Positions 25,076 through 38,510 of a stretch of 64,000 nt of DNA are shown here, one piece after another. Source of the stretch: Vulcanimicrobiota bacterium (GTDB taxonomy: Bacteria > Vulcanimicrobiota > Xenobia > Xenobiales > JADMJV01); the NCBI GenBank assembly GCA_050250895.1, contig JBFWNU010000004.1:96001-160000 (forward strand), given 5' to 3'. Every line of letters starts with the position of its first letter. Positions within the stretch are counted from its first letter, which is position 1. The notes below the pieces were generated by a model that was given only the letters and a program-made list of their open reading frames with translations, was not told the origin of the DNA and made no database searches. The translations under genes were made by a program, and so were the position numbers.

Positions 25076-25734
25076 ATACGCGCGTGCTGGTGGTCGACGA
25101 CGAGCGTTCCGTGCGCCGTTTTCTGCGCACCACCCTGACCGCCCAGGGCTATCGCGTCTTCGAGGCTACCGACGGAGCCAGTGCGCTGACAGAAGTGCGC
25201 AGCCAGCGTCCCGACCTGGTGATTCTCGACCTGGGACTGCCCGATCTCGACGGAACCGAGGTCACGCGGCAGTTGCGCGAATGGACCAGCATACCCATTC
25301 TGATCCTCTCGGTTCGAGATAGTGAAACCGAAAAGATCGAAGCCCTCGATGCCGGAGCCGACGACTATCTTACCAAGCCTTTCGGCGTGGGAGAACTGAT
25401 GGCTCGACTGCGGGCGGCCATGCGGCGCATGGCTCCCGAACAGCAGAGCTTCTCGGAGAGCGGGCTGGAGATCGACTTCGGCTTGCGGCGAGTGGCGGTG
25501 GAGGGCGTCGAGGTCAAGTTGACGCCTACCGAGTATGACCTCTTGCGCGTGCTCACGCAGGCCGCCGGCCAGGTCCTGACCCACTCGCAGTTGCTGCGCC
25601 AGGTGTGGGGACCCGTGGACGAGTCCGATGTCCACACCTTGCGAGTGAACATCAGCAACTTGCGGAAGAAGCTCGGGGGTAACTACATCCTGACCGAGCC
25701 GGGGGTGGGATACCGACTGGGCCTGGATGGCTGA
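25072..25734 (+). CDS. kdpE: KdpE-like OmpR-family response regulator 1
   Basis: VVDDE, LDLGLPD, GADDYLTKPF, LRVNISNLRKKL, TEPGVGYR. Confidence 0.88.
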   Translation: MNTRVLVVDDERSVRRFLRTTLTAQGYRVFEATDGASALTEVRSQRPDLVILDLGLPDLDGTEVTRQLREWTSIPILILSVRDSETEKIEALDAGADDYLTKPFGVGELMARLRAAMRRMAPEQQSFSESGLEIDFGLRRVAVEGVEVKLTPTEYDLLRVLTQAAGQVLTHSQLLRQVWGPVDESDVHTLRVNISNLRKKLGGNYILTEPGVGYRLGLDG

Positions 25735-28045
25735 ACTGCGAGTATTCTTCGGCCCCGCCGAAGAGACCGCCGAAGCCCTGGCCAAAGAGGCGGCCCGGCG
25801 CGGTCTCGAGGTGACGGCCGAGCTTGAGCTCGAAAAGCTGCTCAAAGCCCGACCGGCGGCCGTGGCTGTGGACCGGCTGGCCAAAGTCAACCCCCCGGGC
25901 GGTCGCCACGCGCAACGTTATCTCGATGTGGCCGACTTGCTGGCGGCCGGTATCTCGGTCTACACCACCATGGAGGTTGACCAGCTGGAGAGTCAGGTCG
26001 ATGCCATCGAGCGCATCACCGGCCGCCGGCCCGAGAGTGCCGTGCCGGATCCCTTTCTCGACCAGGCCGAAGTCGTGCTGGTCGACCAGTCCGTCCAGAC
26101 AGCCGAGCAGCTGGCTCTCAGAGAGCTGGCTTTGCGACAGACCGCCCTCTGGGTCGAGCGTCGCTTGCTGCGCGAGGAGCCCCGGGCCACTCCGTGGCCT
26201 AGCGCCGAGCGCCTGTTGGTTTGCGTCGGGCCAAGCCCCTTGAGCGAGAAGCTGGTGCGTGCCGCCAAGCGACTGGCCGACTCTCTGGGGGTCGAATGGC
26301 TGGCCCTGCATGTCGACACCATCGGCCTTCGCCCGGCTGAACGCCAGAGAGTGGCTCAGCATCTGGAGTTGGCCGCTCGGCTTGGGGCCAGAGTGCTGGC
26401 CAGCCCGACTTCCCACTCGCTGGTTGAAGCCGTGGTCGAAGTCTCGCAGCGCGAGAACGTAACTCGCATCGTGGCCGGCAAACCTCTGGGCCCGTCCTGG
26501 CGACGCCTGTTCACGCGTTCTTTGACCGACGAGATCCTGGCCCGTACCCGCGGCATCGACATCTTCGTGCTGGGCTCAGACGAGACCGAACCGCCCCCCG
26601 CCCCCGCCGCCGACAGACCCGCCACCAACGCCTATCTGGCGGCCGCCTTGCTGGTGGCTCTGGCCACTGCCCTGGGCTTGCCACTACAACCCCATCTCAG
26701 CCCCACCAACCTGGTGATGCTCTATCTTGCCGCGGTCGTCACCTCGGCCTATCGCTTCGGTCGCGGCCCGTCTAACCTGGCAGCCTTGCTGAGCGTCATG
26801 GCCTTTGACCTGGTCTTTGTGCCGCCTCGCCTTCGATTGGCGGTGGATGACTCGGAGTACATCATCACCTTTGTAGGCTTTCTGGCGGTGGGGCTCCTGG
26901 TTAGCAGTCTGACGGCCCAGGCCCGCGAGCAAGCCCGCCGGGCTCAGCAACGCGAAGGCCAGGCCCTCGACCTGCTGCGCTTGAGCCGCGAGCTCAGTCG
27001 GGCTAGCAGCGTGCCGGCCGTACTCGAAGCCACCGCCGCCCACCTCCGCCGCCACTTCGGTGAGGCTTACCTGGCGGGGCCCGGAAGCGAGGAAATCGAG
27101 CCGGCGGCCCAACTCGCCCTCGAAACGGGCAGTCCGGTGGGAAAGGGTACCGACACCATGCCCGAGGCGACCTGCTGCTGGCTACCTCTGGGTGCAGAAG
27201 AGCGCAACCTGGCGGTAGTGGGTATTCAAAAGCCGCCACCCCAGGGCGACGTGCTGGCTCAGGAGTTGCTAGAGGCGACCCTGGCTCAGGCCGCCACCGC
27301 CCTGGCCCGGGCCGAACTCGTCGAGACGGCCCGCCAAAACGAGTTGCTGCGGGCCACCGAGCGCCTGCAGACAGCTTTGCTCAACTCTATCTCGCACGAT
27401 TTACGAATTCCGCTGGTGTCGATTCAGGGGGCGCTCTCGAGTCTGCTCGAAGAAAGTCTCGAGTTCGATGCCGAGTCACGACGCAGCCTGCTAGAAAATG
27501 CCGTCTCCGAAGCCGAACGACTCAACCGGCTGGTAGCCAACCTGCTGCAGATGACCCGTCTCGAGTCGGGTGCCCTCAAAGTGCGTCCGGTGCTTTGCGA
27601 TGCGACCGATCTGGTGGCCACCTCGGTCGAGGCACTTCACAGCCGGCTGGCCGACCATCCGGTAGAACTCGATCTTCCTGACGACCTGCCCCTGGTGGCC
27701 ATGGACTATGTGCTGATGCAACAAGTCTTGATCAATCTGTTGGAGAACGCCATTGCGCACAGCCCCGAAACAGCCCCCATTCGAGTCGAGGCCGCTTGCC
27801 AGGGCTCCGGTTTGATTCTATCGGTGCTAGACAGGGGTCCAGGTGTGCCCGAGGAAATGCGGCCGAAGGTGTTCGAGAGATTCGTACGCGGCGAAAGTTC
27901 CGAACCGGGCGGCAGTGGCCTGGGCCTATCCATCTGCAAGGCGTTGGCCGAAGCCCACCAGGGTGAGGTCTGGCACGAGCCCCGGCCCGGGGGGGGCTCG
28001 GCCTTTCGCCTGCGCCTGCCGCTGGAAGCGAGGGAGGGCCCATGA
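25727..28045 (+). CDS. kdpD: KdpD-like sensor histidine kinase with degenerate N-terminal domain
   Basis: RYLDV.DLL.AGI.VYTT, USP domain, 4-TM region, SHDLRIPL H-box, NLLENA, GSGLGL. Confidence 0.9.
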   Translation: MAELRVFFGPAEETAEALAKEAARRGLEVTAELELEKLLKARPAAVAVDRLAKVNPPGGRHAQRYLDVADLLAAGISVYTTMEVDQLESQVDAIERITGRRPESAVPDPFLDQAEVVLVDQSVQTAEQLALRELALRQTALWVERRLLREEPRATPWPSAERLLVCVGPSPLSEKLVRAAKRLADSLGVEWLALHVDTIGLRPAERQRVAQHLELAARLGARVLASPTSHSLVEAVVEVSQRENVTRIVAGKPLGPSWRRLFTRSLTDEILARTRGIDIFVLGSDETEPPPAPAADRPATNAYLAAALLVALATALGLPLQPHLSPTNLVMLYLAAVVTSAYRFGRGPSNLAALLSVMAFDLVFVPPRLRLAVDDSEYIITFVGFLAVGLLVSSLTAQAREQARRAQQREGQALDLLRLSRELSRASSVPAVLEATAAHLRRHFGEAYLAGPGSEEIEPAAQLALETGSPVGKGTDTMPEATCCWLPLGAEERNLAVVGIQKPPPQGDVLAQELLEATLAQAATALARAELVETARQNELLRATERLQTALLNSISHDLRIPLVSIQGALSSLLEESLEFDAESRRSLLENAVSEAERLNRLVANLLQMTRLESGALKVRPVLCDATDLVATSVEALHSRLADHPVELDLPDDLPLVAMDYVLMQQVLINLLENAIAHSPETAPIRVEAACQGSGLILSVLDRGPGVPEEMRPKVFERFVRGESSEPGGSGLGLSICKALAEAHQGEVWHEPRPGGGSAFRLRLPLEAREGP

Positions 28046-28719
28046 CCCGGGTGCTGGTGGTCGAAGACGAGCCCTCGGTTCGCCTCTTCCTGGAGGAGTG
28101 CCTGAGTGGCGCGGGTTTTTCGGTGGAGATCGTCGACACGGCCACCGCGGCCTACGAGCATCTACGCGCCGACCCTCCCGACCTGCTGTTGCTCGATCTG
28201 GGGCTGCCCGACCTCGATGGTCTGGATCTGCTGGCGATGCTTCGCGAATGGAGCCGTCTGCCCGTGATTGTCCTGAGCGTGCGTGATGACGAAGAGACGA
28301 TCGTGGCCGCCCTCGACGCCGGCGCCGATGATTATCTCAGCAAGCCTTTTCGGACCAGCGAATTGTTGGCGCGTCTGCGGGTAGCTCTGCGCCACACTGG
28401 CGGCGAGGCCGAAGAGGAGGTCTTCGAGAGTGGACCTCTGCGGGTCGACCTGGCCGCCAGGGTGGTCGGTCTAGCCGGCCGCGAGGTGCAGTTGACCCCC
28501 ACCGAATATGACCTGCTGCGAGTCTTGATCGCCGACCAGGGCCGGGTCCTGACCCACCACCAGTTGCTCACTCGGGTGTGGGGCGAGGGCTTTCTGGAAG
28601 ACATCCAGGTCCTGCGGGTCAACATCAGCAACCTGCGCAAAAAGATCGAGCCCGACCCGCGCCACCCGCAACTGCTGGTGACCGAACCGGGTGTCGGCTA
28701 TCGCCTGCGACTTCTTTAG
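28042..28719 (+). CDS. kdpE: KdpE-like response regulator 2
   Basis: VVEDE, LDLGLPD, KIEPDPRHP.LLVTEPGVGYRL. ATGA overlap with kdpD. Confidence 0.88.
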   Translation: MTRVLVVEDEPSVRLFLEECLSGAGFSVEIVDTATAAYEHLRADPPDLLLLDLGLPDLDGLDLLAMLREWSRLPVIVLSVRDDEETIVAALDAGADDYLSKPFRTSELLARLRVALRHTGGEAEEEVFESGPLRVDLAARVVGLAGREVQLTPTEYDLLRVLIADQGRVLTHHQLLTRVWGEGFLEDIQVLRVNISNLRKKIEPDPRHPQLLVTEPGVGYRLRLL

Positions 28720-29217: not shown

Positions 29218-30999
29218 ATGAGCGGTCAACCAAATCTGGGCCTAGGCTGGACGCTCGAGCTGCTCGACCGGGCCGGACGCCGCCAATTGCTACTGGTGCT
29301 GGCCCTAACCGGGCTCCTCTCGATAGCAGAGTTGGCCGGGGTCACCTCGGTCCTTCCCTTTATGGGACTGGTAGCCAATCCCGAGCTGCTGCATGAGAAC
29401 CGCTGGCTGCGCGCCTTCTATGAGGCCAGCGGTTTTACCAGCGAGCAGAGTCTGTTGTTGGCGCTGGGTTTATTGATGTTGGCGGCCGTGACCATCGCCA
29501 ACCTGCTCGGCCTGCTGGTGACCTGGGTCTCGCACCGCTTCGTGCTGGCTCAGTATTATCGACTGGTCGAGCGACTGCTGACCGTCTACGCCCGCCGGCC
29601 CCACTCCTATTACCTGGGTGTGAATACGGCCCAGTTGGTACGCATGCTCGAGTCGGTGAACGAGGTCTTGCTCTACAATCTCGAACCGTTGCTGTTGCTG
29701 CTGACCAGACTCGGGTCGGTGGCCCTGATCCTGGCTGGCCTGCTGTGGGCCGACCCGGTGGCCACGATGCTGGCCACGGCCATGCTGGGCGGAGCCTATT
29801 TCTTCGTTTACCTTCGCTTGCGTCGTCAGTTCGCCCACCTGGGAGAGCGCGAGTGGAGCGGTCAACAAGAGAGCGCCAGACTCCGACACCAGCTCTTGCA
29901 AGGTATGAGAGAGGCACGTCTAGCAGGCCGCGAGGCCTTCTTCGTCGCCCAGGCCCTCGACGAAGCCCGAGGCTTTCTCAAGGCTCGCGAGCGGGCTCAC
30001 CTGCTGGGGGTCACTCCCCCCCTGGCCATGCGCACCGTGGTTTTCGCCGGCCTGTTGACGCTCACGCTGTGGGTGCTTTCTCAACAACGCTCACCCGCCG
30101 AGGCCATCCCCTGGATCAGTCTTTATGCCCTGGCCGGCTACCGCCTGCTGCCGGCTTTCCAGCAGACCTTCACCGCCATCGCCCGCATGCGCGGTGGCCT
30201 GACCCATCTCGTCATGCTGCGTCGTGAACTCGAAGACGACGATGGACAACCTCTTGCGCCTCCACCTCTCAGGTTGAGCTTCGAGCGAGAGTTGGCCCTG
30301 GAAGAGGTTCGCTTCGCCTATCTCGAGGGCGAGCCGACGGTCGAGCTGTCGCTGGTGATTCCTCGCAGCAGCCGGGTCGGCATCGTGGGCCGGACCGGCA
30401 GCGGCAAGTCCACCGTGATGGCGCTGCTGATGGGATTGTTGCAACCGACCCAGGGTCGCCTGCTGGTAGACGGCCGAGAGGTAGAGGTCAAGGCCTATCA
30501 GCAAGGCCTGGGGGTGGTTCCCCAAGATGTGTTCCTGCTCGACGAGAGCCTGGCCCGCAACGTAGCCTTCGGGATGGCCGATGCCGAAATCGATCAGGCC
30601 CGCCTGGACGAGGTGGCGGTCCTGGCCCGTATCGACGGCTTGGTGACAACGCTGGAACAGGGGTGGCAGACCAGGGTGGGCGAGCGAGGCATCCGTCTCA
30701 GCGGCGGCGAGCGCCAGCGCGTGGGCATCGCCAGGGCCCTCTATCACGACCCCGACATTCTCTTCTTCGACGAGGCCACGGCAGCCCTCGACAATCAAAC
30801 AGAACAAGAGGTGCTGGAGGCTATCGATGGGCTGTCGGGCTCGCGCACCATCGTCATGGTCGCCCACCGCCTCACCACCGTCAAAGAGTGCGACGCTATC
30901 TATGTGCTCGAGGGGGGACGAGTGGTAGCCTCGGGCACCTACGCCGAACTTTGTGAGGGCTCAGCCCTCTTCCGAGAGCTGGCCAAGGCGGTCGGTTAA
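29218..30999 (+). CDS. ABC exporter, fused TMD+NBD (PglK/HepA-like glycan flippase type)
   Basis: ELAGV..VLPF...ANP N-terminus, YRLLPA.Q, GRTGSGKST, LSGGERQR, DEATAALD. Confidence 0.92.
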   Translation: MSGQPNLGLGWTLELLDRAGRRQLLLVLALTGLLSIAELAGVTSVLPFMGLVANPELLHENRWLRAFYEASGFTSEQSLLLALGLLMLAAVTIANLLGLLVTWVSHRFVLAQYYRLVERLLTVYARRPHSYYLGVNTAQLVRMLESVNEVLLYNLEPLLLLLTRLGSVALILAGLLWADPVATMLATAMLGGAYFFVYLRLRRQFAHLGEREWSGQQESARLRHQLLQGMREARLAGREAFFVAQALDEARGFLKARERAHLLGVTPPLAMRTVVFAGLLTLTLWVLSQQRSPAEAIPWISLYALAGYRLLPAFQQTFTAIARMRGGLTHLVMLRRELEDDDGQPLAPPPLRLSFERELALEEVRFAYLEGEPTVELSLVIPRSSRVGIVGRTGSGKSTVMALLMGLLQPTQGRLLVDGREVEVKAYQQGLGVVPQDVFLLDESLARNVAFGMADAEIDQARLDEVAVLARIDGLVTTLEQGWQTRVGERGIRLSGGERQRVGIARALYHDPDILFFDEATAALDNQTEQEVLEAIDGLSGSRTIVMVAHRLTTVKECDAIYVLEGGRVVASGTYAELCEGSALFRELAKAVG

Positions 31000-31818
31000 A
31001 GCACTCGTCAGTTTACGAATGCGGATAGGCGAGACGCCGTCTGGCCACAGGTCGGTGAGCAGTTGCAGCCACTTGCCCAGCGCCATTTCCATCGGTTCGG
31101 CCAGGCAGGGTCCGAGCAAAACCTGGATGCGTCCCCGTCCGTTAGGAGCGGTCGCTAGCGGCACCACCCGAGCCTGCGTCTGGCCGGCCAGGAAGCCGAC
31201 CGAGGGGTTGAGCTTCAACCAGGCGTTGCCGTAACGGAAGGCTCGCTCGGTCGAGAAGGAGACATCGGCCATCACCGCCACTAATTCGCCCCGTTCCAGG
31301 GCTCTCAGGGCAATCCGGATGGCTTTCACATGGTCGGCCTGGCGCTGGCCCCCGGCCACCCGGATGTAGTGCAGATTGCCTTCCTGACGGGTGCGTTCTG
31401 GGCCGCCCACCAACAGTGTGCAGGGGCGTTCGAGACTGGCCAGAGCGGCCGCCGCCGCATCCATGCGACCAAAGTGACAAATCCCCACCACCAGGGGCCC
31501 GGCCTCGGCCAAAAGGCCAGGTCCGTCGGGCCAATCGAGTAACTCGATCAGGTCTGCCGTGCCCTTCAAGGCTCGGCGGTAGCGATAGTAGCGCGCCTGG
31601 ACCTTGCGAATATGGATCTGTCGGGCCACCCGCTTGGACCAGGCGGTTGAGCCACCAAACAACGACTGAACCCGACCCCAATGAGGGTCGGGAAAGAACG
31701 GATGGATCAGCCCGGCCTCGAGGGTTAGCAGCGGCAAAGCGGTCTCGGGCGGCAACCCCGCCAACCATCTTCGATAAGCTGCTCGCATCCACGGAAGTTC
31801 CGTGGGTGGCCGGCCCAA
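30961..31818 (-). CDS. LpxL-like (lysophospholipid) acyltransferase
   Basis: CHFGRMD (HX4D) and AL.RGELVAVMAD motifs. Confidence 0.65.
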   Translation of the reverse strand: MGRPPTELPWMRAAYRRWLAGLPPETALPLLTLEAGLIHPFFPDPHWGRVQSLFGGSTAWSKRVARQIHIRKVQARYYRYRRALKGTADLIELLDWPDGPGLLAEAGPLVVGICHFGRMDAAAAALASLERPCTLLVGGPERTRQEGNLHYIRVAGGQRQADHVKAIRIALRALERGELVAVMADVSFSTERAFRYGNAWLKLNPSVGFLAGQTQARVVPLATAPNGRGRIQVLLGPCLAEPMEMALGKWLQLLTDLWPDGVSPIRIRKLTSALTDRLGQLSEEG

Positions 31819-31862: not shown

Positions 31863-32273
31863 ATGCGATGCCTTAAGCCCAACCGGGAACAGATCGCCGC
31901 CAAGGTCCTCGACGGCGAGGCTATTTTGATCAACCTGGACACCGGTGTCTACTACAGCCTCGACGGCGCCGGAGCCACTTTGTGGCAACTGGTCGAGTGC
32001 GGCTGTCCCCTCGAGCAACTCGGGGCCGAACTGGCCCATATTTACGGGGTGAGCCAGGCGCTGGTCGAGGCCGATCTGGTCGAGGTCCTCGAGCAAATGC
32101 GCCAAGAGACCCTGGTTCTCGAAGGAGAAGGTGACAGCCCCTACCTTCGCCCTGAGACGCTATCAGGCCAATATACGCGGCCCGAGTTGATGATTTACCG
32201 CGACATGGGCGACCTGCTCGCCTTGGACCCCCCCGCCCCCCGCCTCGAGCAGATCACCTGGACGCCCAGCTAG
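31863..32273 (+). CDS. PqqD/RRE protein with C-terminal leader-like tail
   Basis: DGEAILINLDTGVYYSLDGAG..LWQL...YGV...DL is an RRE. The tail is YTRPELMIYRDMGDLLALDPP...WTPS*. Confidence 0.88.
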   Translation: MRCLKPNREQIAAKVLDGEAILINLDTGVYYSLDGAGATLWQLVECGCPLEQLGAELAHIYGVSQALVEADLVEVLEQMRQETLVLEGEGDSPYLRPETLSGQYTRPELMIYRDMGDLLALDPPAPRLEQITWTPS

Positions 32274-33106
32274 ACCCTTCGATCGCAACATCGAAGCCCC
32301 CCGATGGTGGAGCCGTGAGCAGCCACGAAATCGTCCAGTTGAGCCCTTTCCGCCGAGGTCAGCAGAGCTTGCCAGCGCTGGTTGCGTCGGCTGTCGATGC
32401 TGGGGATCAGATCCTGAGCAAAGGGACTCAGGCCGAGACCATCGGCCAATCGGTCGAGGCACTCGTGCGGCCGTTGTAGCAGGTCCTCGTGGTGGAAGAA
32501 GAGTGGCCGGTCCGAGGGCTGCAGCTGGGTATCGAGAGTCTGGTAGACTCTCAGCCAGTACTCGGCCAACACCACCACCGAGCCCCCGGGAAACACCCGC
32601 GCGGGGTCACCCTCGCGCCAATCGGGCGGCACTACCCACCAGCAGGCATCGGGTTCTGGAGGCAGGTAATGCTTGTAACCCGTGCGCCGCATGGTTCGCA
32701 TCCACAGCATCTGCGTGCTCAAGACGGTGCTGCGCAAGTCGCGCGAACTGATGACCAACCTGGCCCTGGGCAGGGCCCCTCGCAGCCAGCCCAGCTTGTT
32801 CCAGAAATGGGGATGCTTGAGCAGCAGCCGGCCCTTTCCCCCGTTGAATTGCTGATGAAATTGGGCCAGACCTCGTGCGAGCCGATCCCGCTGGGTGGGG
32901 CCGGCCGGCCGGTCGGAGGGTCCACACCGGCATCCGATCTCGGGGACGCCCAGTTCGAGGTCGGTCCACTGGGCCCAGAGCGAACTCAACTCATAGCCGG
33001 TTTCGGGTGTGTAGGCCCAGCACACGTCGGGGTGCGAACCCAAACAATGAGCCAGGATCGTCGTTCCGCTGCGGACGCTGCCAAGAATGAAGATCGGCTC
33101 GGTCAC
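32270..33106 (-). CDS. PAPS-dependent sulfotransferase
   Basis: GSVRSGTT...SHPDV, KHP, RDLRSTVLS, HEDL. Confidence 0.88.
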   Translation of the reverse strand: MTEPIFILGSVRSGTTILAHCLGSHPDVCWAYTPETGYELSSLWAQWTDLELGVPEIGCRCGPSDRPAGPTQRDRLARGLAQFHQQFNGGKGRLLLKHPHFWNKLGWLRGALPRARLVISSRDLRSTVLSTQMLWMRTMRRTGYKHYLPPEPDACWWVVPPDWREGDPARVFPGGSVVVLAEYWLRVYQTLDTQLQPSDRPLFFHHEDLLQRPHECLDRLADGLGLSPFAQDLIPSIDSRRNQRWQALLTSAERAQLDDFVAAHGSTIGGLRCCDRRV

Positions 33107-34188
33107 GCCACTAACTCGAAGTAGAGGCGCTCGAAAGCGTCTACAAAGCCTTCTACGGTGAACTCGTGGGCGATGCGTCGGCGGGCCTGGCAGCCCAGCC
33201 GACGGGCCAGCATCGGCTCATCCAGGAGACGGATGGTGTGACCGACCAATTCTTGAACGGATTCGGGCGCCATCAGCAACCCTGTCTCACCATCGAGCAC
33301 GGCTTCGGCGTTGCCGTCGACCCGAGAAGCCACTACGGGTCGGGCGCTGGCTCCGGCCTCGAGCAAGACATAGGGCATCCCCTCCAGGCGTGAGGGAGCC
33401 AGAACCAGGGTGCTCTGGCGGTAGTGTTCCCAGATCTTGTCGGGATTGACCATGCCGGTGAACTCGACCTTCTCCTGCAGCGCCAGTTGCCGAACCCTCG
33501 CCTCGAGCCGGCCCCGTTCGGGACCATCGCCCACCAGTCGCAGGCTGGCCTCGGGATGCGCTTTTAGAATGGCGGGCATGGCTTCCACCGCCAGGTCGAA
33601 CCCTTTGACCGCGTTCAAGCGCCCGAGTCCCAGCAGCAAAGGAGGTTGCGAAGGCTCGCCCGGCTCGGGCGGCAGGGCGACAGCGTTGGGGATCACCTCG
33701 ATTCGGGCCGAGGGAACCGCTCGACCCCAGCTGAGGCGGTGGCTTTCGCAGGTGACCACGGTGCGTTCGGCATGGGTCAAGAGTCGATGGGTCAGCGACT
33801 CGGGTCCGATGCTCGGATAAGTTGGGTTCTGAATCCAAACCAGGGTGGGACACGGGTGGGTGGAGTGGCTTTGCAGATGCAGTAGCGCGAGGGGATCGTT
33901 GAAAGAGAAATGCACCAGATCGGGAGCATACTCCCGCTTGAGCTGGGCCATCTGCTTGCTCAATTGCAGCAGCTGGAGGGGATCGGGCTTCTCGAAGAGA
34001 GTCTGGAGAGGCAGCCGGCGAATCTCGACCCCCTCGTGGACGTCGCGAGCGGGAAGGCGACCCAGATCGCTGGTGACCACCAGAAAATCGTGACCCCGCT
34101 TGCGCAAGTGACGAAACAACTCCATCACCCCCAGCTCGACGCCACCAACCACGGGCCAGTAGAAGCCATACATGTAAAGCACTTTCAC
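33103..34188 (-). CDS. GT4 glycosyltransferase
   Basis: PVVGGVE, GRL..VKG, EGMPYVLLEA. GTGA overlap with the upstream GT. Confidence 0.92.
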   Translation of the reverse strand: MKVLYMYGFYWPVVGGVELGVMELFRHLRKRGHDFLVVTSDLGRLPARDVHEGVEIRRLPLQTLFEKPDPLQLLQLSKQMAQLKREYAPDLVHFSFNDPLALLHLQSHSTHPCPTLVWIQNPTYPSIGPESLTHRLLTHAERTVVTCESHRLSWGRAVPSARIEVIPNAVALPPEPGEPSQPPLLLGLGRLNAVKGFDLAVEAMPAILKAHPEASLRLVGDGPERGRLEARVRQLALQEKVEFTGMVNPDKIWEHYRQSTLVLAPSRLEGMPYVLLEAGASARPVVASRVDGNAEAVLDGETGLLMAPESVQELVGHTIRLLDEPMLARRLGCQARRRIAHEFTVEGFVDAFERLYFELVA

Positions 34189-35294
34189 TGCGTCAACTCT
34201 CCATAAAGCTCCAAATACCTGGCCCCATGCTGCTCCCACCCGGCCCCAACCCGAGCGCCCGCGGCCGCCGCCAGTCCCATGCGCCGGGCTCGCTCGGGGT
34301 TTTCGAGCAGCTCGATCATCGCTTGCGCCAGGGCTGAGGTGTCGAAGGGTTCGACCAGCAGCCCGGTCTGACCGGTCTGCACGATCTCGCCGAGCCCGCC
34401 CACCCTGGTAGCCACCACCGCTCGACCGGCAGCGGCAGCTTCGAGGGCCACCAGCGGGTGGCCCTCCTGACGCGAGGGCATCACCACAAAGGAACAACTG
34501 GCCAGCGCCCTAGGCACCTGCTCGGGCAACAGGGGCCCAGCGAAGCTCACCGAGGGAAGGCGCCCTCGACTCTGCAGGGCGGCCAGGTCCGGCCCATCCC
34601 CCCACAGGATCAAACACGCCTCAGGCCGAGCGACCACCACCGCGGGCCAGGCATCGAGCAGCAGATCGACCCCCTTCTGGTGGCACATTCGGCCCAAGAA
34701 ACCTACCCGGTCGGCCGGAGCAGCTTCCCCGCCGGTCAGTTCTGGATAGCCGTTAGGAATGACCCGGCTCCGGTGGCCTAGCTCGGGGACGAATTCCAGC
34801 GTGTGGTCAGCCACCGCCTGGGAAACGAACACCACCGCCTCGGCTCGGCGCAAAGCCCGACCCTGGGTGGCCTCGGGCTCGAGGGCGGCAGCTGGCTGGG
34901 GCAGGTGCAGGGTGATCACCCAGGGTTCCTGCTGGCGGGCCATCAGCCGGTTGGCGTAATAGAACGAGAGGGCCCCTCCTGAAAGGTGTCCCAGCTCGGG
35001 CCGTTTGAGCGCCATAAGGTCGAGCAGTTTTTGCTGTTGAGCCAACACGGCCTCAGGACTACGCTGCTCGAGAGCGGCCGTCAAATCGAGGCGATAGAGT
35101 TCGAATCCGTCGATTCGCTCGTATTCGCGCAGCCCGGCATCACGGTCGGTCACCACCACCAATTCGAGCCCGTGCCGGACGAGGCGACGGGCCAGCTCGT
35201 GGCAAGCGCGCGCCGCCCCGCCCAGCCGCGGAGAAAAGTGCTCGGCCAGAAGAATCACTCGCACTCTCCCGGAGTTAGGGACGGCAGCAGCCAT
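34185..35294 (-). CDS. GT4 glycosyltransferase
   Basis: PRLGGA, GRM..QKG, EGHPLVALEA. Start is 35294 or 35264. Confidence 0.92.
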   Translation of the reverse strand: MAAAVPNSGRVRVILLAEHFSPRLGGAARACHELARRLVRHGLELVVVTDRDAGLREYERIDGFELYRLDLTAALEQRSPEAVLAQQQKLLDLMALKRPELGHLSGGALSFYYANRLMARQQEPWVITLHLPQPAAALEPEATQGRALRRAEAVVFVSQAVADHTLEFVPELGHRSRVIPNGYPELTGGEAAPADRVGFLGRMCHQKGVDLLLDAWPAVVVARPEACLILWGDGPDLAALQSRGRLPSVSFAGPLLPEQVPRALASCSFVVMPSRQEGHPLVALEAAAAGRAVVATRVGGLGEIVQTGQTGLLVEPFDTSALAQAMIELLENPERARRMGLAAAAGARVGAGWEQHGARYLELYGELTQ

Positions 35295-35337
35295 TCCTCT
35301 TGCAGGTGCCGGCCCCAAGGCGTTCAACTAGCCTGGG

Positions 35338-36000
35338 ATGAGGGTTTCGGTGGTGATACCGGTCTATAATGGCGAGGCCTATCTGGGCGAGGCTATCGAA
35401 AGCATGCTGGCTCAGACCAGGCCCGCCGACGAGATCCTCGTCGTCGACGACGGTTCGACCGACCATAGTGCCGCGGTAGCCGAGAGCTACCCGGCCGTGA
35501 CGGTCCTGCGACAGGCTAACGCGGGCCATCTGGCGGCCCGCAACCTCGGCTTGAAGACGGCTACGGGCGATCTGGTAGCCCTGCTTGACGCCGACGACCG
35601 CTCCCGGCCGCAGCGGCTGGCGCTTCAATTAGCGGCCTTCGGGGCTCGACCCGAGACGGCTGTTTGCTTCGGCCAGGTGCTCCATTTCTGGACACCGGAG
35701 CACGACCAGGGGCTGCCCCTCCCCTATCCCGACCCCGTCCCGGCCCCGTCCAACACGCTGATGGCCTGGCGCAAGACCTTCGAACAGGTGGGCTACTTCG
35801 ATGAAGCCTGGAACCACGCCGGCCAGACCGACTGGTTGCTCCGCGTGCAAGCGGCCGAATTAGGGCGCCTGGTACTCGATGAGGTGCTGGTCGAGCGACG
35901 CCTGCACCCGGCCAGCCTGAGTGCGAGGGGCGCCGCCGAATCGCGCGAGGAGCACCTGAGGCTGGTCAAAAGAACGCTGGACCGGCAACGGGGTCGTTGA
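35338..36000 (+). CDS. GT2 glycosyltransferase
   Basis: VSVVIPVYN, VVDDGSTD, ARNLG, LDADD. Confidence 0.94.
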   Translation: MRVSVVIPVYNGEAYLGEAIESMLAQTRPADEILVVDDGSTDHSAAVAESYPAVTVLRQANAGHLAARNLGLKTATGDLVALLDADDRSRPQRLALQLAAFGARPETAVCFGQVLHFWTPEHDQGLPLPYPDPVPAPSNTLMAWRKTFEQVGYFDEAWNHAGQTDWLLRVQAAELGRLVLDEVLVERRLHPASLSARGAAESREEHLRLVKRTLDRQRGR

Positions 36001-36845
36001 GCCCTGCCGTGCAGTTTCAGCTGGCCAGGTTCACCGTCGCCCTCTCCACCGACTTGCCCCTAACGCAGGCCTTTTCTCACCTCGAGCCCCGGACCGACCG
36101 ACGGCCCGACCTGAAGGTCCAGGTAAAGGCCGGCCGTTGCCGGGGCGGTTGGGGCCTGCGCCCCTCCCGGGATGGACGGCGGGTCTATTGGGGCAGTCCG
36201 GCGGGCGACTGGGTGCTCGACCGTCAGGCCGACACGATTTTTGGCCGGGTGGACCCAGACCGACTCACCGATTTCGAGCGGGGTCGCCCGTTCTATCCGC
36301 TGCTGGTCGCCTGGTTGGCCGATCAGGGCCTGATGGTTTTACATGCGGCTCTGCTCAGCAGCCAGGGGCGGGGGGTGCTGCTGGCTGGCCCCCGCGGCGC
36401 TGGCAAGTCGACCACGGCCCTGGCTTGCCATGCCCACGGATGGACCTTTCTGGCCGAGGACAAGGTCATCTATGACGCGGCCAGTAACCACGGCTACAGT
36501 CTCTACTGCAGCCTCTTCGAGCCCCGGCCCGAGGGACCCAAGCAGTTACGCTTTCTCGACCAACGAGTGGCTGCCCAGGCGCCCATCGAGTTGATGGCGC
36601 TGCCCCAGGTGGCTGGTCAGACCCGGCTGGCGCGCCTGAGAAAATCGCAGGCGCTCTTGCGCCTGGCTCCCAACAGCCTCTTCCAGGGACAACTCAACCA
36701 GGGAAGAACGGCCTTTACCGGCCTGACCAGTCTGGTAGAAACCGTGCCGACCTATCTTTTCGAACTCGGGCCGCAGGCAGAGGCCAATAGCCGGGCCCTA
36801 CTGGCCACCCTGGCGAGCCTTCCACTTCCAGCGGGCCCAGGCTAG
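35997..36845 (+). CDS. HPr kinase-like P-loop kinase
   Basis: LHAA...GVLLAGPRGAGKSTT...FLAED. TTGA overlap with GT2. Confidence 0.8.
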   Translation: MSPAVQFQLARFTVALSTDLPLTQAFSHLEPRTDRRPDLKVQVKAGRCRGGWGLRPSRDGRRVYWGSPAGDWVLDRQADTIFGRVDPDRLTDFERGRPFYPLLVAWLADQGLMVLHAALLSSQGRGVLLAGPRGAGKSTTALACHAHGWTFLAEDKVIYDAASNHGYSLYCSLFEPRPEGPKQLRFLDQRVAAQAPIELMALPQVAGQTRLARLRKSQALLRLAPNSLFQGQLNQGRTAFTGLTSLVETVPTYLFELGPQAEANSRALLATLASLPLPAGPG

Positions 36846-38510
36846 CAGGCCGGGTGTGGCGCTCGGTCCCAACAAGCGCAAGTGACGCAGCCCCTCGGCC
36901 AGGGAGCGGGCCAGGCCGTGGCCCGACAACAGAGCCCGATAGTAAAGGTGATCCAGCCAGTCGTGGCCGACCAGGCGTTCGTGGTGCGACAGCGGGACCA
37001 CCGGCCCAAACTGGCGGGCCAGACTATCGAACATCTCGCTGAGGGCTGGCTCGAGGCGTCGCCGCCTCACTTCGGCCACCACCACCTCCCAATCCAATGG
37101 TTGGCGCAGGAGAGCGACGACATCGGCCAGGGCCAGGCGCGGGTCGACCAGACGAAATCCATGCGCGACGGCTAGATAGAGACAATCCTCGAGAGCCGGC
37201 ACCCGCACGGCCTGGCCCTCGAGCGAGGCCGGCCTGACCCTGTTCCAGAGCCCTTCGTCGGCCTCTGGCCAGCGGCAATCGGCCAGAGCGACCCAGTGAA
37301 GGTCGAGCTTGTTGCCCTTCGGGTCCTCAAAGCTGGTGGCGTGACGGCCGCCCACTCGGGGTCGTCCCAACGGCTCCCCGTTCCAACCGGCCGCCAGCAG
37401 CGCCTGGCAGGCTCGCCCAAAGGCTGCCGGCCGAACCAGAATGTCGACATCACCCATCGGACGACGGCCGCCGTCGTGGTAGAGCCCGGCCACCAGCGCC
37501 GCTCCCTTTAGCAAGACCGGCTCGGCCCCCGCCTGTTGCAGCAACCCGAAGGCCTCGGTGGCTGCCCGGAGGCGTCCTACATTGGTCAGCCAGGCGCGCC
37601 GGTAGGTCGCCGCCACCAGAGGCTCTGCGCTCTCGCCCTGCAGCAAAGGCGCGGTGCGCGCGGCAAAGGGATCGGCCTGCTGGGGCACCTCGCCCCCGCG
37701 GCCGAGCACCAGGGCCATCAGGCTCCGTTGCGGCTCAGACAGGTCCGGCAGCCGGGGAGCCGCCGTGAGACGTCGGGGCAAAGAGACGCCGAACAGCCTT
37801 CGGCGCGCCAGCAGGTAGCCCGGGACCTCGACCGCCAGTGCCGCTTTGAGCCAGGCTAAAACCCGGGTCAGGTCACGCGACCACGGTCGATAGTCTTCGA
37901 GCAGACTCCAGTCGGCCAATTCGGCCAGCCGAGCCGCATCTAGAGCCCACTGCAGTCCCGGCCAGCCTCCCAGACAGGTCCTGGCCAGCTGGTCGCTCGG
38001 GTGCAGGGCTGCCGGTCCGGCGCGCGCCAACACCCGGTCGTGGCCCAGACCCTTCGGCAAGTCCAGGCGATGGTGCAGCTCGAGCACCAGTCCGTCGGGT
38101 GAGCGCCAACGCTGAGCCCCCTCTCGTCCGTGAGCCATTTGCCACGCGCCCTCCGGAAGCTCGCCGGCCCAGACAGCCAGGAAACCGCAATGCCGGTGGA
38201 CTCCCGGGGGATGAAAGCTCTCGGCCAGGGCGAACTCGTCGAGGAAGAGCCTCCCGGCAAAGGCCGAGGCCTGATCCTGAAAGGCTCGATGGCGCATCTG
38301 TTCGCGCAGGGTGGCTGCGCGGGCCACCGTGACGAACCCTCCTAACTCTTCACCCAGGCCCGCGTAGAGAAACGGGAGCAGGTGCGAGAACTTCTTGTGG
38401 GTCTTGAACGCGTCGGCTCCGTGGCCAGACCACCAGCGCCGCCAGGCGCTGGCATCACCCCGGCAGGCTCGCAAGAGCTCCACATCGGTTGAGGCCGGCA
38501 AGCGCAGCAT
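36798..38510 (-). CDS. Nucleotidyltransferase-family protein with two tandem domains
   Basis: C-terminal domain LLKGAAL...RPMGDVDILV...LDLHW. N-terminal copy is degenerate (LELHH kept, KG and DxD lost). Confidence 0.82.
   Translation of the reverse strand: MLRLPASTDVELLRACRGDASAWRRWWSGHGADAFKTHKKFSHLLPFLYAGLGEELGGFVTVARAATLREQMRHRAFQDQASAFAGRLFLDEFALAESFHPPGVHRHCGFLAVWAGELPEGAWQMAHGREGAQRWRSPDGLVLELHHRLDLPKGLGHDRVLARAGPAALHPSDQLARTCLGGWPGLQWALDAARLAELADWSLLEDYRPWSRDLTRVLAWLKAALAVEVPGYLLARRRLFGVSLPRRLTAAPRLPDLSEPQRSLMALVLGRGGEVPQQADPFAARTAPLLQGESAEPLVAATYRRAWLTNVGRLRAATEAFGLLQQAGAEPVLLKGAALVAGLYHDGGRRPMGDVDILVRPAAFGRACQALLAAGWNGEPLGRPRVGGRHATSFEDPKGNKLDLHWVALADCRWPEADEGLWNRVRPASLEGQAVRVPALEDCLYLAVAHGFRLVDPRLALADVVALLRQPLDWEVVVAEVRRRRLEPALSEMFDSLARQFGPVVPLSHHERLVGHDWLDHLYYRALLSGHGLARSLAEGLRHLRLLGPSATPGLLAWARWKWKARQGGQ

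Follow-up and report, generated by a model that had tools for sequence, protein, structure and literature searches.

RiPP recognition elements (RREs) are understood as receiving a leader in trans, from the product of a separate precursor gene, and in the borosins a catalytic enzyme is fused to its own core. The linear polyphosphorylated peptide (LPP) clusters (lppA-K-B-S-D-N) of the Bacillota, to which LPPs are called restricted by Popov et al. (Nat Commun 2026, PMC13381572), combine a precursor, LppA, with an RRE, LppB. According to the same text, the YxxPxV/L motif of the leader is bound as an antiparallel strand, the leader beyond that strand is thought to face the enzymes, and LppB alone is insoluble without its peptide (PMC13381572). 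In lasso peptide systems, as two papers describe, B1 RREs are found with a kinase and a nucleotidyltransferase, namely PadeK of paeninodin, PsmK/PsmN of pseudomycoidin and BsfB1/BsfK/BsfN of Bradymonas (PMC8498205, PMC10368454), and the RRE BsfB1 boosts the HprK-like peptide kinase BsfK (PMC10368454). Leaders have also been tethered by design, and a review, which mentions OphMA as well, lists fusions of a lanthipeptide synthetase, a cyclodehydratase and ATP-grasp ligases in which the leader activates its enzyme in cis (PMC11048544).

The gene studied here encodes an RRE that ends in a leader-like tail. In the window, by which we mean the whole stretch of 64,000 nucleotides that was analysed (Table 1), an RRE as a separate protein, a kinase of the HprK-like type (with a Pfam match below the cut-off), a PF14907 transferase and an MsbA-like exporter occur together, as in the LPP set. 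The likeness extends to a YxxPxV/L-type motif and to an RRE Asp that holds its Tyr (D70 of LppB, D71 of P0001). However, the LPP motif belongs to the separate LppA precursor, whereas in P0001 it is fused to the protein's own C-terminus; in addition, a specific GT2 is the constant partner of the P0001 family, and the family has members in many phyla. A kinase, a nucleotidyltransferase and a sulfotransferase are common to the window and to the paeninodin, pseudomycoidin and Bsf clusters, but neither the window nor its contig yielded a precursor gene, a B2 protease or a cyclase to go with P0001, and the terminal Ser of P0001 is not conserved. The engineered in-cis fusions share with P0001 a leader tethered to its recogniser, with the site permanently occupied. 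They are man-made, whereas P0001 is natural and joins a non-catalytic RRE to a leader-like motif, with no modified core identified. A literature search, with supplements outside its reach, returned no described RRE with a leader in cis, nor such a cassette.

Going by model names, there is also a likeness to HPr-rel-A, which we take to be the TIGR04352 kinase with the TIGR04353 PqqD-family chaperone, and to SynChlorMet, presumably ScmC/ScmD, in that a PqqD-family protein is paired with an HprK-like P-loop protein. All scores with the models of these systems lay far below the curated cut-offs; the kinase in the window scored 49.7 bits with TIGR04352, for which the cut-off is 200, and P0001 had no match to TIGR04353.

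The P0001 gene and its RRE domain

The open reading frame at 31863-32273 (+) is a real gene, and its translation is a 136-aa protein, P0001, in which a terminal Ser is followed by TAG; the ATG at 31863 is consistent with the N-termini of the homologues. The preliminary description saw in it a PqqD-fold RRE followed by a linker and a YxxPxL tail, and the translation, Pfam, the AF2 model and conservation among homologues confirm this architecture. Residues 19-85 match Pfam PqqD (PF05402) with E = 6.1e-13 and 49.3 bits, the cut-off being 23.4. RRE topology is seen in the AF2 model (mean pLDDT 85.7), with DSSP strands at 2-6, 11-16, 19-24, 30-34 and 85-89 and helices at 36-45, 50-61 and 65-81, that is, a winged helix-turn-helix of a three-stranded sheet and three helices whose termini are locked by beta1/beta5, as described for RREs in PMC13381572. 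The top PDB matches found with Foldseek are TbiB1-leader complexes (5v1v_A, E = 1.3e-5, TM 0.88 on the target; also 6jx3_B), and by both structure and sequence the RRE is closest to the lasso B1 proteins TbiB1, PbaB1 and TfuB1. The lasso PqqD models nevertheless scored P0001 below their cut-offs (NF033536, 44.1 vs 80; NF033530, 25.4 vs 70), and no curated NCBIfam model covers the family when tested with P0001, its paralogue on contig C2, the homologue at locus L020 and the tandem forms.

Table 1. Coordinates of P0001, its parts and the neighbouring genes in the window
Feature	Positions	Strand	Remarks
PglK/MsbA/HepA-like ABC exporter without peptidase domain	29218..30999	+	
P0001 gene, RRE protein with built-in leader-like tail, 136 aa	31863..32273	+	
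RRE/PqqD domain, aa 1-90	31863..32132	+	Pfam, AF2, Foldseek
Variable linker, aa 91-103	32133..32171	+	mean entropy 3.20 bits, columns 89-103
Tail module 1, aa 104-113, YxxPxLxxY(R)	32172..32201	+	leader-like strand, predicted pairing with strand 30-34
Tail module 2, aa 114-133, DMxDLLALDPPxP..W	32202..32261	+	short helix predicted at 115-119, followed by chain of low confidence
Last three residues T-P-S and stop codon	32262..32273	+	non-conserved
Sulfotransferase (PF13469)	32270..33106	-	relatives in 0/79 related loci; local to window
Two GT4 glycosyltransferases	33103..35327	-	overlapping ORFs 33103-34497 and 34185-35327
Small GT2 glycosyltransferase	35338..36000	+	cassette-specific clade; the family's most constant neighbour
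HprK-like P-loop kinase	35997..36845	+	Hpr_kinase_C 26.2 bits, below cut-off 33.3; TIGR04352 49.7, below 200
PF14907 (NTP_transf_5) nucleotidyltransferase, 570 aa	36798..38510	-	domain aa 302-495

Conservation and predicted docking of the tail

P0001 belongs to a large, unnamed family of self-tailed RREs spread over many bacterial phyla. A word index returned 245 homologues, mostly of ~150 aa and covering 96-98% of P0001, and HMMER alone, with 4357 hits in all, gave 548 representatives at E<=1e-10. No other part of the family is as conserved as the tail: over 336 unique sequences the mean column entropy is 1.10 bits for residues 104-126, compared with 1.91 for the RRE (10-88) and 3.20 for the linker. 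Between 127 and 138 of 139 representatives that were found by HMMER only, without the word index, retain each of Y104, P107, L109, D114, M115, A120, D122, P123, P124 and P126, and a strict 20-residue tail motif occurs in 221 of the 269 stored homologues. Taken by itself, Y..P.L is weak evidence: of the 13950 ORFs in the same genome that start with ATG and have at least 120 aa, 45 carry it within their last 45 aa. The tail motif is not due to chance, because it is conserved across homologues. An ESM Atlas look-up with the tail gave a best score of 0.77, in the noise range.

The preliminary description also raised the idea of the C-terminal Ser as an acceptor of the paeninodin type, and the alignments speak against this. 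P0001 does end in Ser, but as a general feature this does not hold: among the 221 motif-bearing homologues the last residue is Ser in 23, Thr in 11, Asp in 39 and Gly in 33, and the alignment column of S136 holds Pro in 57, a gap in 40 and Ser in 13 of 139. We therefore rejected a paeninodin-type terminal-Ser acceptor (23/221 and 13/139). What the homologues do keep is YxxPxL and module 2; beyond the conserved Trp, the C-terminus varies in both length and sequence, and no Ser or Thr is conserved anywhere in the tail in the homologue alignments. Position 125 is Thr in about half of alignment A1 and Ala in P0001, and two homologues, P0032 and P0087, are devoid of Ser and Thr after DPPxP. Y104 is the only nearly invariant Tyr of the tail, Y112 being replaced by Phe in 20 and by His in 7 of the 139 representatives. 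The LPP precursor motif reads YxxPxVLxHQxIxFETxxS, with LppA phosphorylated on S3 at Y+18, whereas the P0001 family has an invariant Asp at that position (D122 = Y104+18). Common to the P0001 tail and LppA are the Tyr, the Pro, a hydrophobic residue at +5, an aromatic residue or His at +8 and a hydrophobic residue at +11.

The tail is a leader-like element that, on the strength of DSSP and pLDDT, a weak pass in complex prediction and analogy, is most likely bound in cis by its own RRE. In the AF2 model a strand at 110-112 directly follows L109, and block pLDDT is 91 for residues 101-110 and 74 for 111-120, while module 2 is predicted to be unpacked on the RRE (block pLDDT 52 and 47). When the RRE (1-95) and the tail (96-136) were submitted as separate chains, the complex reached an ipSAE of 0.51 (best control 0.02), a result classed as weak support. 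Of 80 solved complexes 58 attain the pass mark, as do 2 of 110 mismatched pairs, but passes at <=0.60 comprise only 7 of the 80 solved complexes together with both passing mismatches. The runs share at least 70% of their contacts, with partner pLDDT of at least 52; the pass may reflect memory, because like complexes have already been solved.

The geometry suggested by known complexes is compatible with this docking, which the preliminary description had expected. In the PbaB1 and LppB crystal complexes, residues just past YxxPxL/V pair with an RRE strand (PMC13381572) that maps to residues 28-34 of P0001. Strands 2-6 and 85-89 correspond to the terminus-locking beta1/beta5 pair, and we therefore infer that 30-34 is the free edge. 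D70 of LppB hydrogen-bonds the leader Tyr according to the same text (PMC13381572); its counterpart in P0001, D71, is invariant (32/32), and D34, the counterpart of LppB N33, is kept in at least 90% (the LppB chain numbering is offset by 18, as checked on six residues named in that paper). Y104 is predicted to sit buried in the RRE pocket. Weak MI-APC covariation links tail positions 105 and 108 with residue 35, and 111, 113 and 116 with residue 29, which traces an antiparallel track along strand 30-34; this signal is confounded by subfamily structure, with tail columns also covarying mutually (111-116, 116-133) and RRE-to-linker pairs reaching 0.113.

Tandem proteins repeat the arrangement. 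In eight complete multi-RRE proteins an aromatic-xx-P strand of its own comes after each internal RRE, and in the AF2 model of the tandem protein P0121 the internal copy of the motif forms strand 112-115. The full DMxDLLxLDP module is found only at the end of such proteins, once per protein. No fused longer forms turned up in a search of weak reach, which missed tandem proteins present in the HMMER library.

Related loci and the search for a separate precursor

Near P0001 there are indeed a kinase of the HprK-like type, a PF14907 nucleotidyltransferase and a sulfotransferase (Table 1). As the Pfam domains of the first of the two GT4 frames, 33103-34497, do not set in until about aa 117, its true start is probably internal to the listed ORF. 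Using a pattern drawn from the tail itself, we collected 79 related loci; having been selected by the tail, they cannot show how often relatives are without it. Among the 49 well-flanked loci (at least 5 kb on either side), the neighbours include GT2 in 49, an HprK-like gene in 41, GT4 in 37, PF14907 in 21 and an ABC exporter in 13, so that within ~5 kb an HprK-like match is absent in 8 of the 49 and PF14907 in 28. The HprK-like gene lies directly downstream on the same strand in 39 of the 72 loci with at least 1.5 kb of downstream sequence. At L020 the operon runs ABC, GT4, RRE plus tail, HprK-like, GT2, GT2, PF14907, PF14907. At L001, where there is no HprK-like match, the operon holds three near-identical copies of the gene (445-448 of 450 nt). 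The genome of P0001 contains a second cassette, with whose GT2s the GT2 of the window matches at 6e-39 to 4e-31, as opposed to 2e-13 or weaker for GT2s outside both cassettes.

A six-frame motif scan of the 9.5-Mb genome found the tail motif only within the two RRE genes. Stand-alone tail peptides (30-73 aa, searched with words from region 96-136) were not found either, which is weak evidence because small ORFs are often uncalled. Across the 79 loci true extra copies of the tail are confined to L001, in its two additional complete genes; second matches in L036 and L040 lie inside longer ORFs and look like chance. Trans peptides bearing an aromatic-xx-P-x-L motif are encoded in the genome next to RREs that have no tail, and WxxPxL peptides of the organism lie on contig C1 near 3415909-3416521. 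Tail-less RREs of the genome adjoin Asn-synthase homologues elsewhere.

We rejected a canonical lasso cluster, there being no cyclase or B2 protease on the contig. The lasso B2 protease (Transglut_core3) and the Asn-synthase-like cyclase have matches on contigs C1, C3, C5 and C9 and none on C4, which carries the window; ten neighbours that were scanned include neither, and a lasso-type separate precursor with a YxxPxL leader was not found in the genome scan or the short-homologue search. For the archaeal-type SpI peptidase LppS (TIGR02228), the genome has a single match, on contig C8, of 18.7 bits against a cut-off of 51.85, and the window has none.

Possible roles of the self-tailed RRE

Our tentative reading, to which we give somewhat less than an even chance, is that P0001 is a stand-alone lasso-B1/LppB-like RRE carrying its own ligand and serving as a self-leadered adaptor or activator of an LPP-like kinase/glycosyltransferase cassette. 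YxxPxLxxY (104-113) would lie in the RRE's own groove as the extra antiparallel strand that is normally supplied by a leader in trans, and as its own motif would fill the groove, the RRE would be permanently 'leader-bound'. Module 2 (114-133) would stay free; since it stands at the place of the enzyme-facing part of LPP and lasso precursors (cleavage site, phospho-Ser), it may be offered to the co-encoded enzymes, of which the HprK-like kinase, the PF14907 nucleotidyltransferase and the cassette-specific GT2 are candidate partners. The tail would most likely act non-covalently, as a pseudo-substrate or as a mimic of the product, the acceptor position being taken by Asp, and the adaptor would switch on or organise a cassette that acts on a glycan or another leaderless substrate. 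If true, the 'in cis activation' devised by engineers would have a counterpart in nature, many 'orphan' RRE/HprK-like/PF14907 cassettes without a precursor gene would be explained, and LPP logic would extend beyond the Bacillota, tied to glycosyltransferase operons. The products of these cassettes could then be sought by way of one 136-aa protein with a tail of 30 residues and its three or four partner enzymes.

Several points weigh against such an adaptor: inhibition, not activation, is what one would expect of a pseudo-substrate, the triplicate at L001 fits a consumed substrate at least as well, and HprK-like matches are missing at L001 and at 8 of the 49 well-flanked loci, as is PF14907 at 28 of them. 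P0001 could instead be a fused RRE-precursor or carrier, whose docked leader presents the distal segment; the kinase would phosphorylate it, PF14907 and GT2/GT4 enzymes would build a phospho-glycan, and the protein would either stay on as carrier or primer or be cleaved later. The kinase/nucleotidyltransferase/ABC set matches the tailoring sets that act on RRE-bound peptides in the LPP and paeninodin systems, and neither a separate precursor nor short proteins with tail words were found in the searches above. Three gene copies in one operon are reminiscent of multi-copy precursor genes, the variable C-terminus after the conserved Trp resembles a core peptide after its leader, and D122 has exactly the spacing given for S3 of LppA. 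We nonetheless regard this as unlikely, given the lack of a conserved Ser or Thr (with a terminal Ser in 23/221, Ala at 125 here and P0032 and P0087 as extreme cases), the predicted burial of Y104, the variation of Y112 and the lack of a peptidase alongside the gene, with no Transglut_core3 on the contig and no SpI above the cut-off in the genome; a PglK/MsbA-type ABC exporter is also an improbable route for a folded 15-kDa protein.

The tail could also be an autoinhibitory mimic of a leader, plugging the groove until a YxxP-bearing peptide or protein from elsewhere displaces it and thereby gating the cassette. YxxP is kept in the tail just as YxxP-binding residues are kept in the RRE, and trans peptides with an aromatic-xx-P-x-L motif do occur beside tail-less RREs of the genome; given that LppB is insoluble without its peptide, a plug in cis could also be a holding state. 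An intramolecular ligand with invariant anchors would be hard to displace, however, no candidate trans ligand travels with the cassette in the genome, short-homologue and 79-locus searches, and the invariance of module 2, outside the groove-binding part, would be left unexplained, so we hold this mechanism to be distinctly unlikely. The insolubility of LppB without its leader would equally suit a purely structural extension that stabilises or solubilises the RRE or mediates oligomerisation, plays no part in recruiting enzymes and merely happens to lie in a generic polysaccharide locus, and glycosyltransferases are indeed common beside any surface-glycan locus. That explanation strikes us as highly improbable: module 2 is predicted to be unpacked and yet is nearly invariant over many phyla, the GT2 partner is of a specific clade, and an HprK-like gene so often (39/72) lies directly downstream.

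A covalent variant, which we consider very unlikely, would have the modification fall on D122. Its carboxylate would be activated as an acyl phosphate by the HprK-like enzyme, or loaded with a sugar-phosphate by PF14907/GT2 enzymes. Glycan synthesis would then begin on the self-leadered RRE, acting as a primer or carrier protein, and the glycan would afterwards be passed to the exporter. Surface-glycan assembly would in that case follow the logic of a carrier protein that has its origin in RiPP machinery. D122 is kept in 136 of the 139 representatives.

An RRE protein with a conserved C-terminal tail

Translation of the gene gave a protein, P0001, that ends, as the preliminary description had read it, in a leader-like tail with Ser at its very C-terminus. 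The Pfam PqqD profile matched aa 19-85 (49.3 bits; cut-off, 23.4), and an AF2 model based on an alignment of 32 homologues (mean pLDDT 85.7) placed strands at 2-6, 11-16, 19-24, 30-34, and 85-89 and helices at 36-45, 50-61, and 65-81. This arrangement of β1-β5 and three helices is that of LppB and PbaB1 (PMC13381572). By sequence and by profile, the PDB yielded TbiB1, PbaB1 (9x90), LppB (9x8z), and TfuB1, which cover only the RRE part; the top Foldseek matches there were TfuB1 and complexes of TbiB1 with its leader peptides (5v1v_A, E = 1.3e-5, 29% identity).

The motif Y..P.L occurs within the last 45 residues of 45 of the 13,950 ORFs of the host genome and is not rare by itself, so that the case for the tail rests on its conservation. 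A word-index search with P0001 returned 245 homologues, mostly of ~150 aa and covering 96-98% of the query, and HMMER gave, among 1.84 billion representatives, 4357 matches at E ≤ 1e-3, 548 of them at E ≤ 1e-10; the lower-scoring matches surely include tail-less RREs. Across 336 unique aligned sequences, mean column entropy was 1.10 bits in tail columns 104-126, as compared with 1.91 bits in RRE columns 10-88 and 3.20 bits in the linker. Since two sequence sources select for tail words, residues were counted on 139 HMMER-only single-domain representatives, drawn from the best 150 matches, to whose score the tail itself adds: Y104 was kept in 133, P107 in 133, L109 in 127, D114 in 132, M115 in 130, A120 in 134, D122 in 136, P123 in 137, P124 in 138, and P126 in 137. 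The tail is therefore conserved as a family character, but its terminal Ser, the presumed phosphorylation site, is not: the last residue is Ser in 23 and Thr in 11 of 221 motif-bearing proteins, and the S136 column of the 139 representatives is mostly Pro or gap. Most homologues continue beyond the conserved Trp to variable, often acidic ends.

As judged from sequence, the tail of the family consists of two modules, aa 104-113 (module 1, YxxPxLxxY(R)) and aa 114-133 (module 2, DMxDLLALDPPxP..W). Eight complete tandem proteins carry two or three RRE units (P0121, P0122, P0123, P0125, P0180, P0181, P0203, and P0267), and in all eight every internal RRE is followed by an aromatic-xx-P-x-hydrophobic stretch of its own; the full DMxDLLxLDP block stands after the last unit only, with a degenerate internal version in two. 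In an AF2 model of P0121 (pLDDT 81.1, from a shallow alignment of 6), the internal tail copy forms strand 112-115 and the final copy strand 231-233 with helix 236-242, which matches the pattern of P0001 (strand 110-112, helix 115-119). A sister tail subtype ends ..DPIH(D/E)V....GWP.

Predicted docking of module 1 in cis

In crystals of PbaB1 and LppB, leader residues right behind the YxxPxL/V motif extend the RRE sheet, pairing with Y38-N40 and Y27-N33, respectively (PMC13381572). The modelled tail strand of P0001 begins directly past L109, and a leader-type strand after YxxPxL is thus predicted. With chain and published numbering aligned on six named residues per protein (offset, 18), the leader-pairing strands map to Y30-S32 (from PbaB1) and residues 28-34 (from LppB) of P0001. 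Strands 2-6 and 85-89 are the counterparts of the β1/β5 pair that locks the termini, which would leave 30-34 as the sole edge of the sheet open to the tail strand. In LppB, the hydroxyl of the leader Tyr is held by D70 and the Pro kink is fixed by N33 (PMC13381572); these two residues align with D71, invariant among the 32 homologues, and D34, kept in at least 90%, respectively.

Complex prediction of the RRE (1-95) with the tail (96-136) gave ipSAE values of 0.51, 0.50, and 0.51 and a grade of "weak support" (best control, 0.02), with at least 70% of contacts agreeing between runs and a partner pLDDT of at least 52. Of 80 solved complexes, 58 attain the mark, as do 2 of 110 mismatches; at ipSAE ≤0.60, however, just 7 of the solved complexes and both of the mismatches do so. 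These counts hold only roughly for a prediction made with a custom alignment. The docking proposed in the preliminary description is thus favoured by the predicted strand and by this prediction, although the pass may reflect likeness, because RRE-leader complexes have already been solved. Among all column pairs of the 336 sequences, MI-APC ranked 29-116 second, 29-113 sixth, 35-105 19th, and 35-108 24th, an antiparallel track along strand 30-34. We count this covariation as a hint only, because the block-shuffle null (maximum 0.082 in 40 shuffles) ignores relatedness, the tail partners of columns 29 and 35 also covary with one another, and RRE-to-linker pairs reach 0.113.

The gene cassette

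Besides the exporter and the acyltransferase-like ORF, the neighbours in the window comprise genes for a sulfotransferase, two GT4s, a GT2, an HprK-like kinase, and a PF14907 nucleotidyltransferase.

Coordinates of the RRE + tail gene, its neighbours, and related loci (L094 = C2:593528-596893)
Feature	Position	Strand	Remarks
772-aa ORF and 225-aa ORF	25727-28719	+	upstream of ABC exporter; by eye sensor kinase and response regulator-like
ABC exporter	29218-30999		
ORF	30961-31818		unassigned; weak acyltransferase likeness
RRE + tail (P0001)	31863-32273	+	136 aa
GT4	33103-34497	-	
GT4	34185-35327	-	
PF14907 protein	36798-38510	-	570 aa; Pfam domain aa 302-495 only
PF14907, second cassette	L094 458-1480		
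RRE, second cassette	L094 1480-1911		sister tail subtype ending ..DPIHEVDE..GWP; start overlaps upstream stop
HprK-like ORF, second cassette	L094 1784-2770		Walker A motif
Third RRE of host genome	C5:243038-244385		tail shortened, degenerate
Two paralogous 46-aa ORFs	C1:3415909-3416521		on either side of a tail-less RRE
RRE + tail, three copies	L001 1959-2405, 7400-7846, 9986-10432		445-448 of 450 nt identical

The two GT4 ORFs, as listed, overlap by ~310 nt; the real start of the first is probably further in, since its N-terminal 100 aa are Arg/Gly-rich and lie ahead of the Pfam domains. The N-terminal 300 aa of the PF14907 protein had no match, and the 3′ end of its ORF shares 48 nt with the convergent kinase ORF. 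Transglut_core3 and Asn-synthase had no match on the contig of the window, and no archaeal-type signal peptidase exceeded its cut-off in the whole host genome.

Genome contigs were scanned with family-derived patterns, including one of the tail, by which the loci are thus ascertained; this gave 129 confirmed relatives, of which 79 loci were kept. Their hosts are Gemmatimonadota, delta-proteobacteria, Bacteroidota, Rokubacteria, Acidobacteriota, Thermoleophilia, Nitrospirota, Verrucomicrobia, Phycisphaerae, Chloroflexota, and others. When the window's neighbours were compared by tblastn with all 79 loci, and with the 49 that have at least 5 kb on both sides (matches within ~5.4 kb), GT2 was found in 70 and 49, HprK-like kinase in 64 and 41, GT4 in 51 and 37, PF14907 in 38 and 21, the ABC exporter in 23 and 13, and the sulfotransferase in none of either; the acyltransferase-like ORF had no match in the 79. 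Of the 72 loci with enough downstream sequence, 39 have an HprK-like match that begins on the same strand <1.2 kb downstream. One low-GC operon (L020) reads ABC, GT4, RRE + tail, HprK-like, GT2, GT2, PF14907, PF14907, and, further along, a GT10-like gene. The operon of locus L001 holds six GT2s, GT4s, a radical SAM protein, a hexapeptide transferase, and an oxidoreductase; each RRE + tail copy adjoins a GT2, and tblastn found no HprK-like gene there.

The host genome has a second cassette (C2, ~588900-597000), comprising an ABC exporter end, PF14907, RRE + tail of the sister subtype, HprK-like, and three cassette-type GT2 genes. The window GT2 matches these three at 6e-39 to 4e-31, as against ~2e-9 for two GT2s of the same contig at ~85 kb distance and 2e-13 or weaker for those on other contigs; on these similarities, the cassette GT2 is a specific clade. 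The third RRE adjoins another HprK-like gene, and its tail has aromatic-xx-P-x-L-xx-Y without a DMxDLLxLDP block after it. Three tail-less RREs on C1 lie beside Asn-synthase homologues; the 46-aa ORFs around one of these RREs (WxxPxLTRL, C-terminal Ser) and a 75-aa Cys-rich ORF near another such pair (near C1:2164152; WxxPxM, terminal Ser) look, from their motifs, like trans lasso-type precursors. Tail-bearing matches occurred in 4 of 30 relatives of the host and were absent from the same-genus genome (98% complete), which points to a patchy distribution.

Possible roles of the tail

The closest known systems are the linear polyphosphorylated peptide (LPP) clusters of Bacillota, with precursor LppA, HprK-like LppK, RRE LppB, SpI-like peptidase LppS, MsbA-like LppD, and the NTP transferase LppN, set within glycosyltransferase-rich capsule loci (Popov et al., 2026, PMC13381572). 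The leader of LppA has the motif YxxPxVLxHQxIxFETxxS, in which S3, the Ser at Tyr+18, is polyphosphorylated by LppK; past its strand the leader does not touch LppB and has been proposed to point towards the enzymes, and LppB alone was insoluble (PMC13381572). From Y104 on, the tail of P0001 shares the Tyr, the Pro, hydrophobic +5, aromatic/His +8, and hydrophobic +11, but has D122 at +18 (136/139 in the family) instead of Ser. This shared spacing suggests that module 2 stands where a precursor has its enzyme-facing part. Searches of the main texts of the literature turned up no description of a leader fused to its RRE or of a multi-phylum cassette of this kind, and a search of the main text of the LPP article no mention of fused forms.

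Prediction and conservation support P0001 as an RRE of the lasso-B1/LppB kind that retains its YxxP-binding residues and has a conserved tail of two modules and a conserved cassette. We infer that the RRE would be permanently filled by its own module 1, and that module 2 would be the part seen by partner enzymes. We tentatively favour a role of P0001 as non-covalent adaptor, activator, or pseudo-substrate, because the tail has no conserved hydroxyl acceptor, the gene is accompanied neither by a peptidase nor by a plausible means of exporting a 15-kDa protein, and glycan enzymes are its constant partners. Precedent exists in engineered leader-enzyme fusions, whose enzymes are activated in cis (reviewed in PMC11048544), and the lasso RRE BsfB1 of Bradymonas strongly boosts phosphorylation by HprK-like BsfK (PMC10368454).

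The earlier proposal that the tail is a fused substrate or carrier appears less likely, but keeps some probability because no other precursor was found in the related loci, the gene stands in three near-identical copies in the one L001 operon, and D122 lies at acceptor spacing. In Firmicute lasso clusters, the kinase targets the C-terminal Ser, and PsmN puts hexose on the phosphate (PMC8498205). Mainly because the invariance of module 2 would be left unexplained by either, we consider it improbable that the tail is an autoinhibitor, and highly improbable that its role is purely structural.
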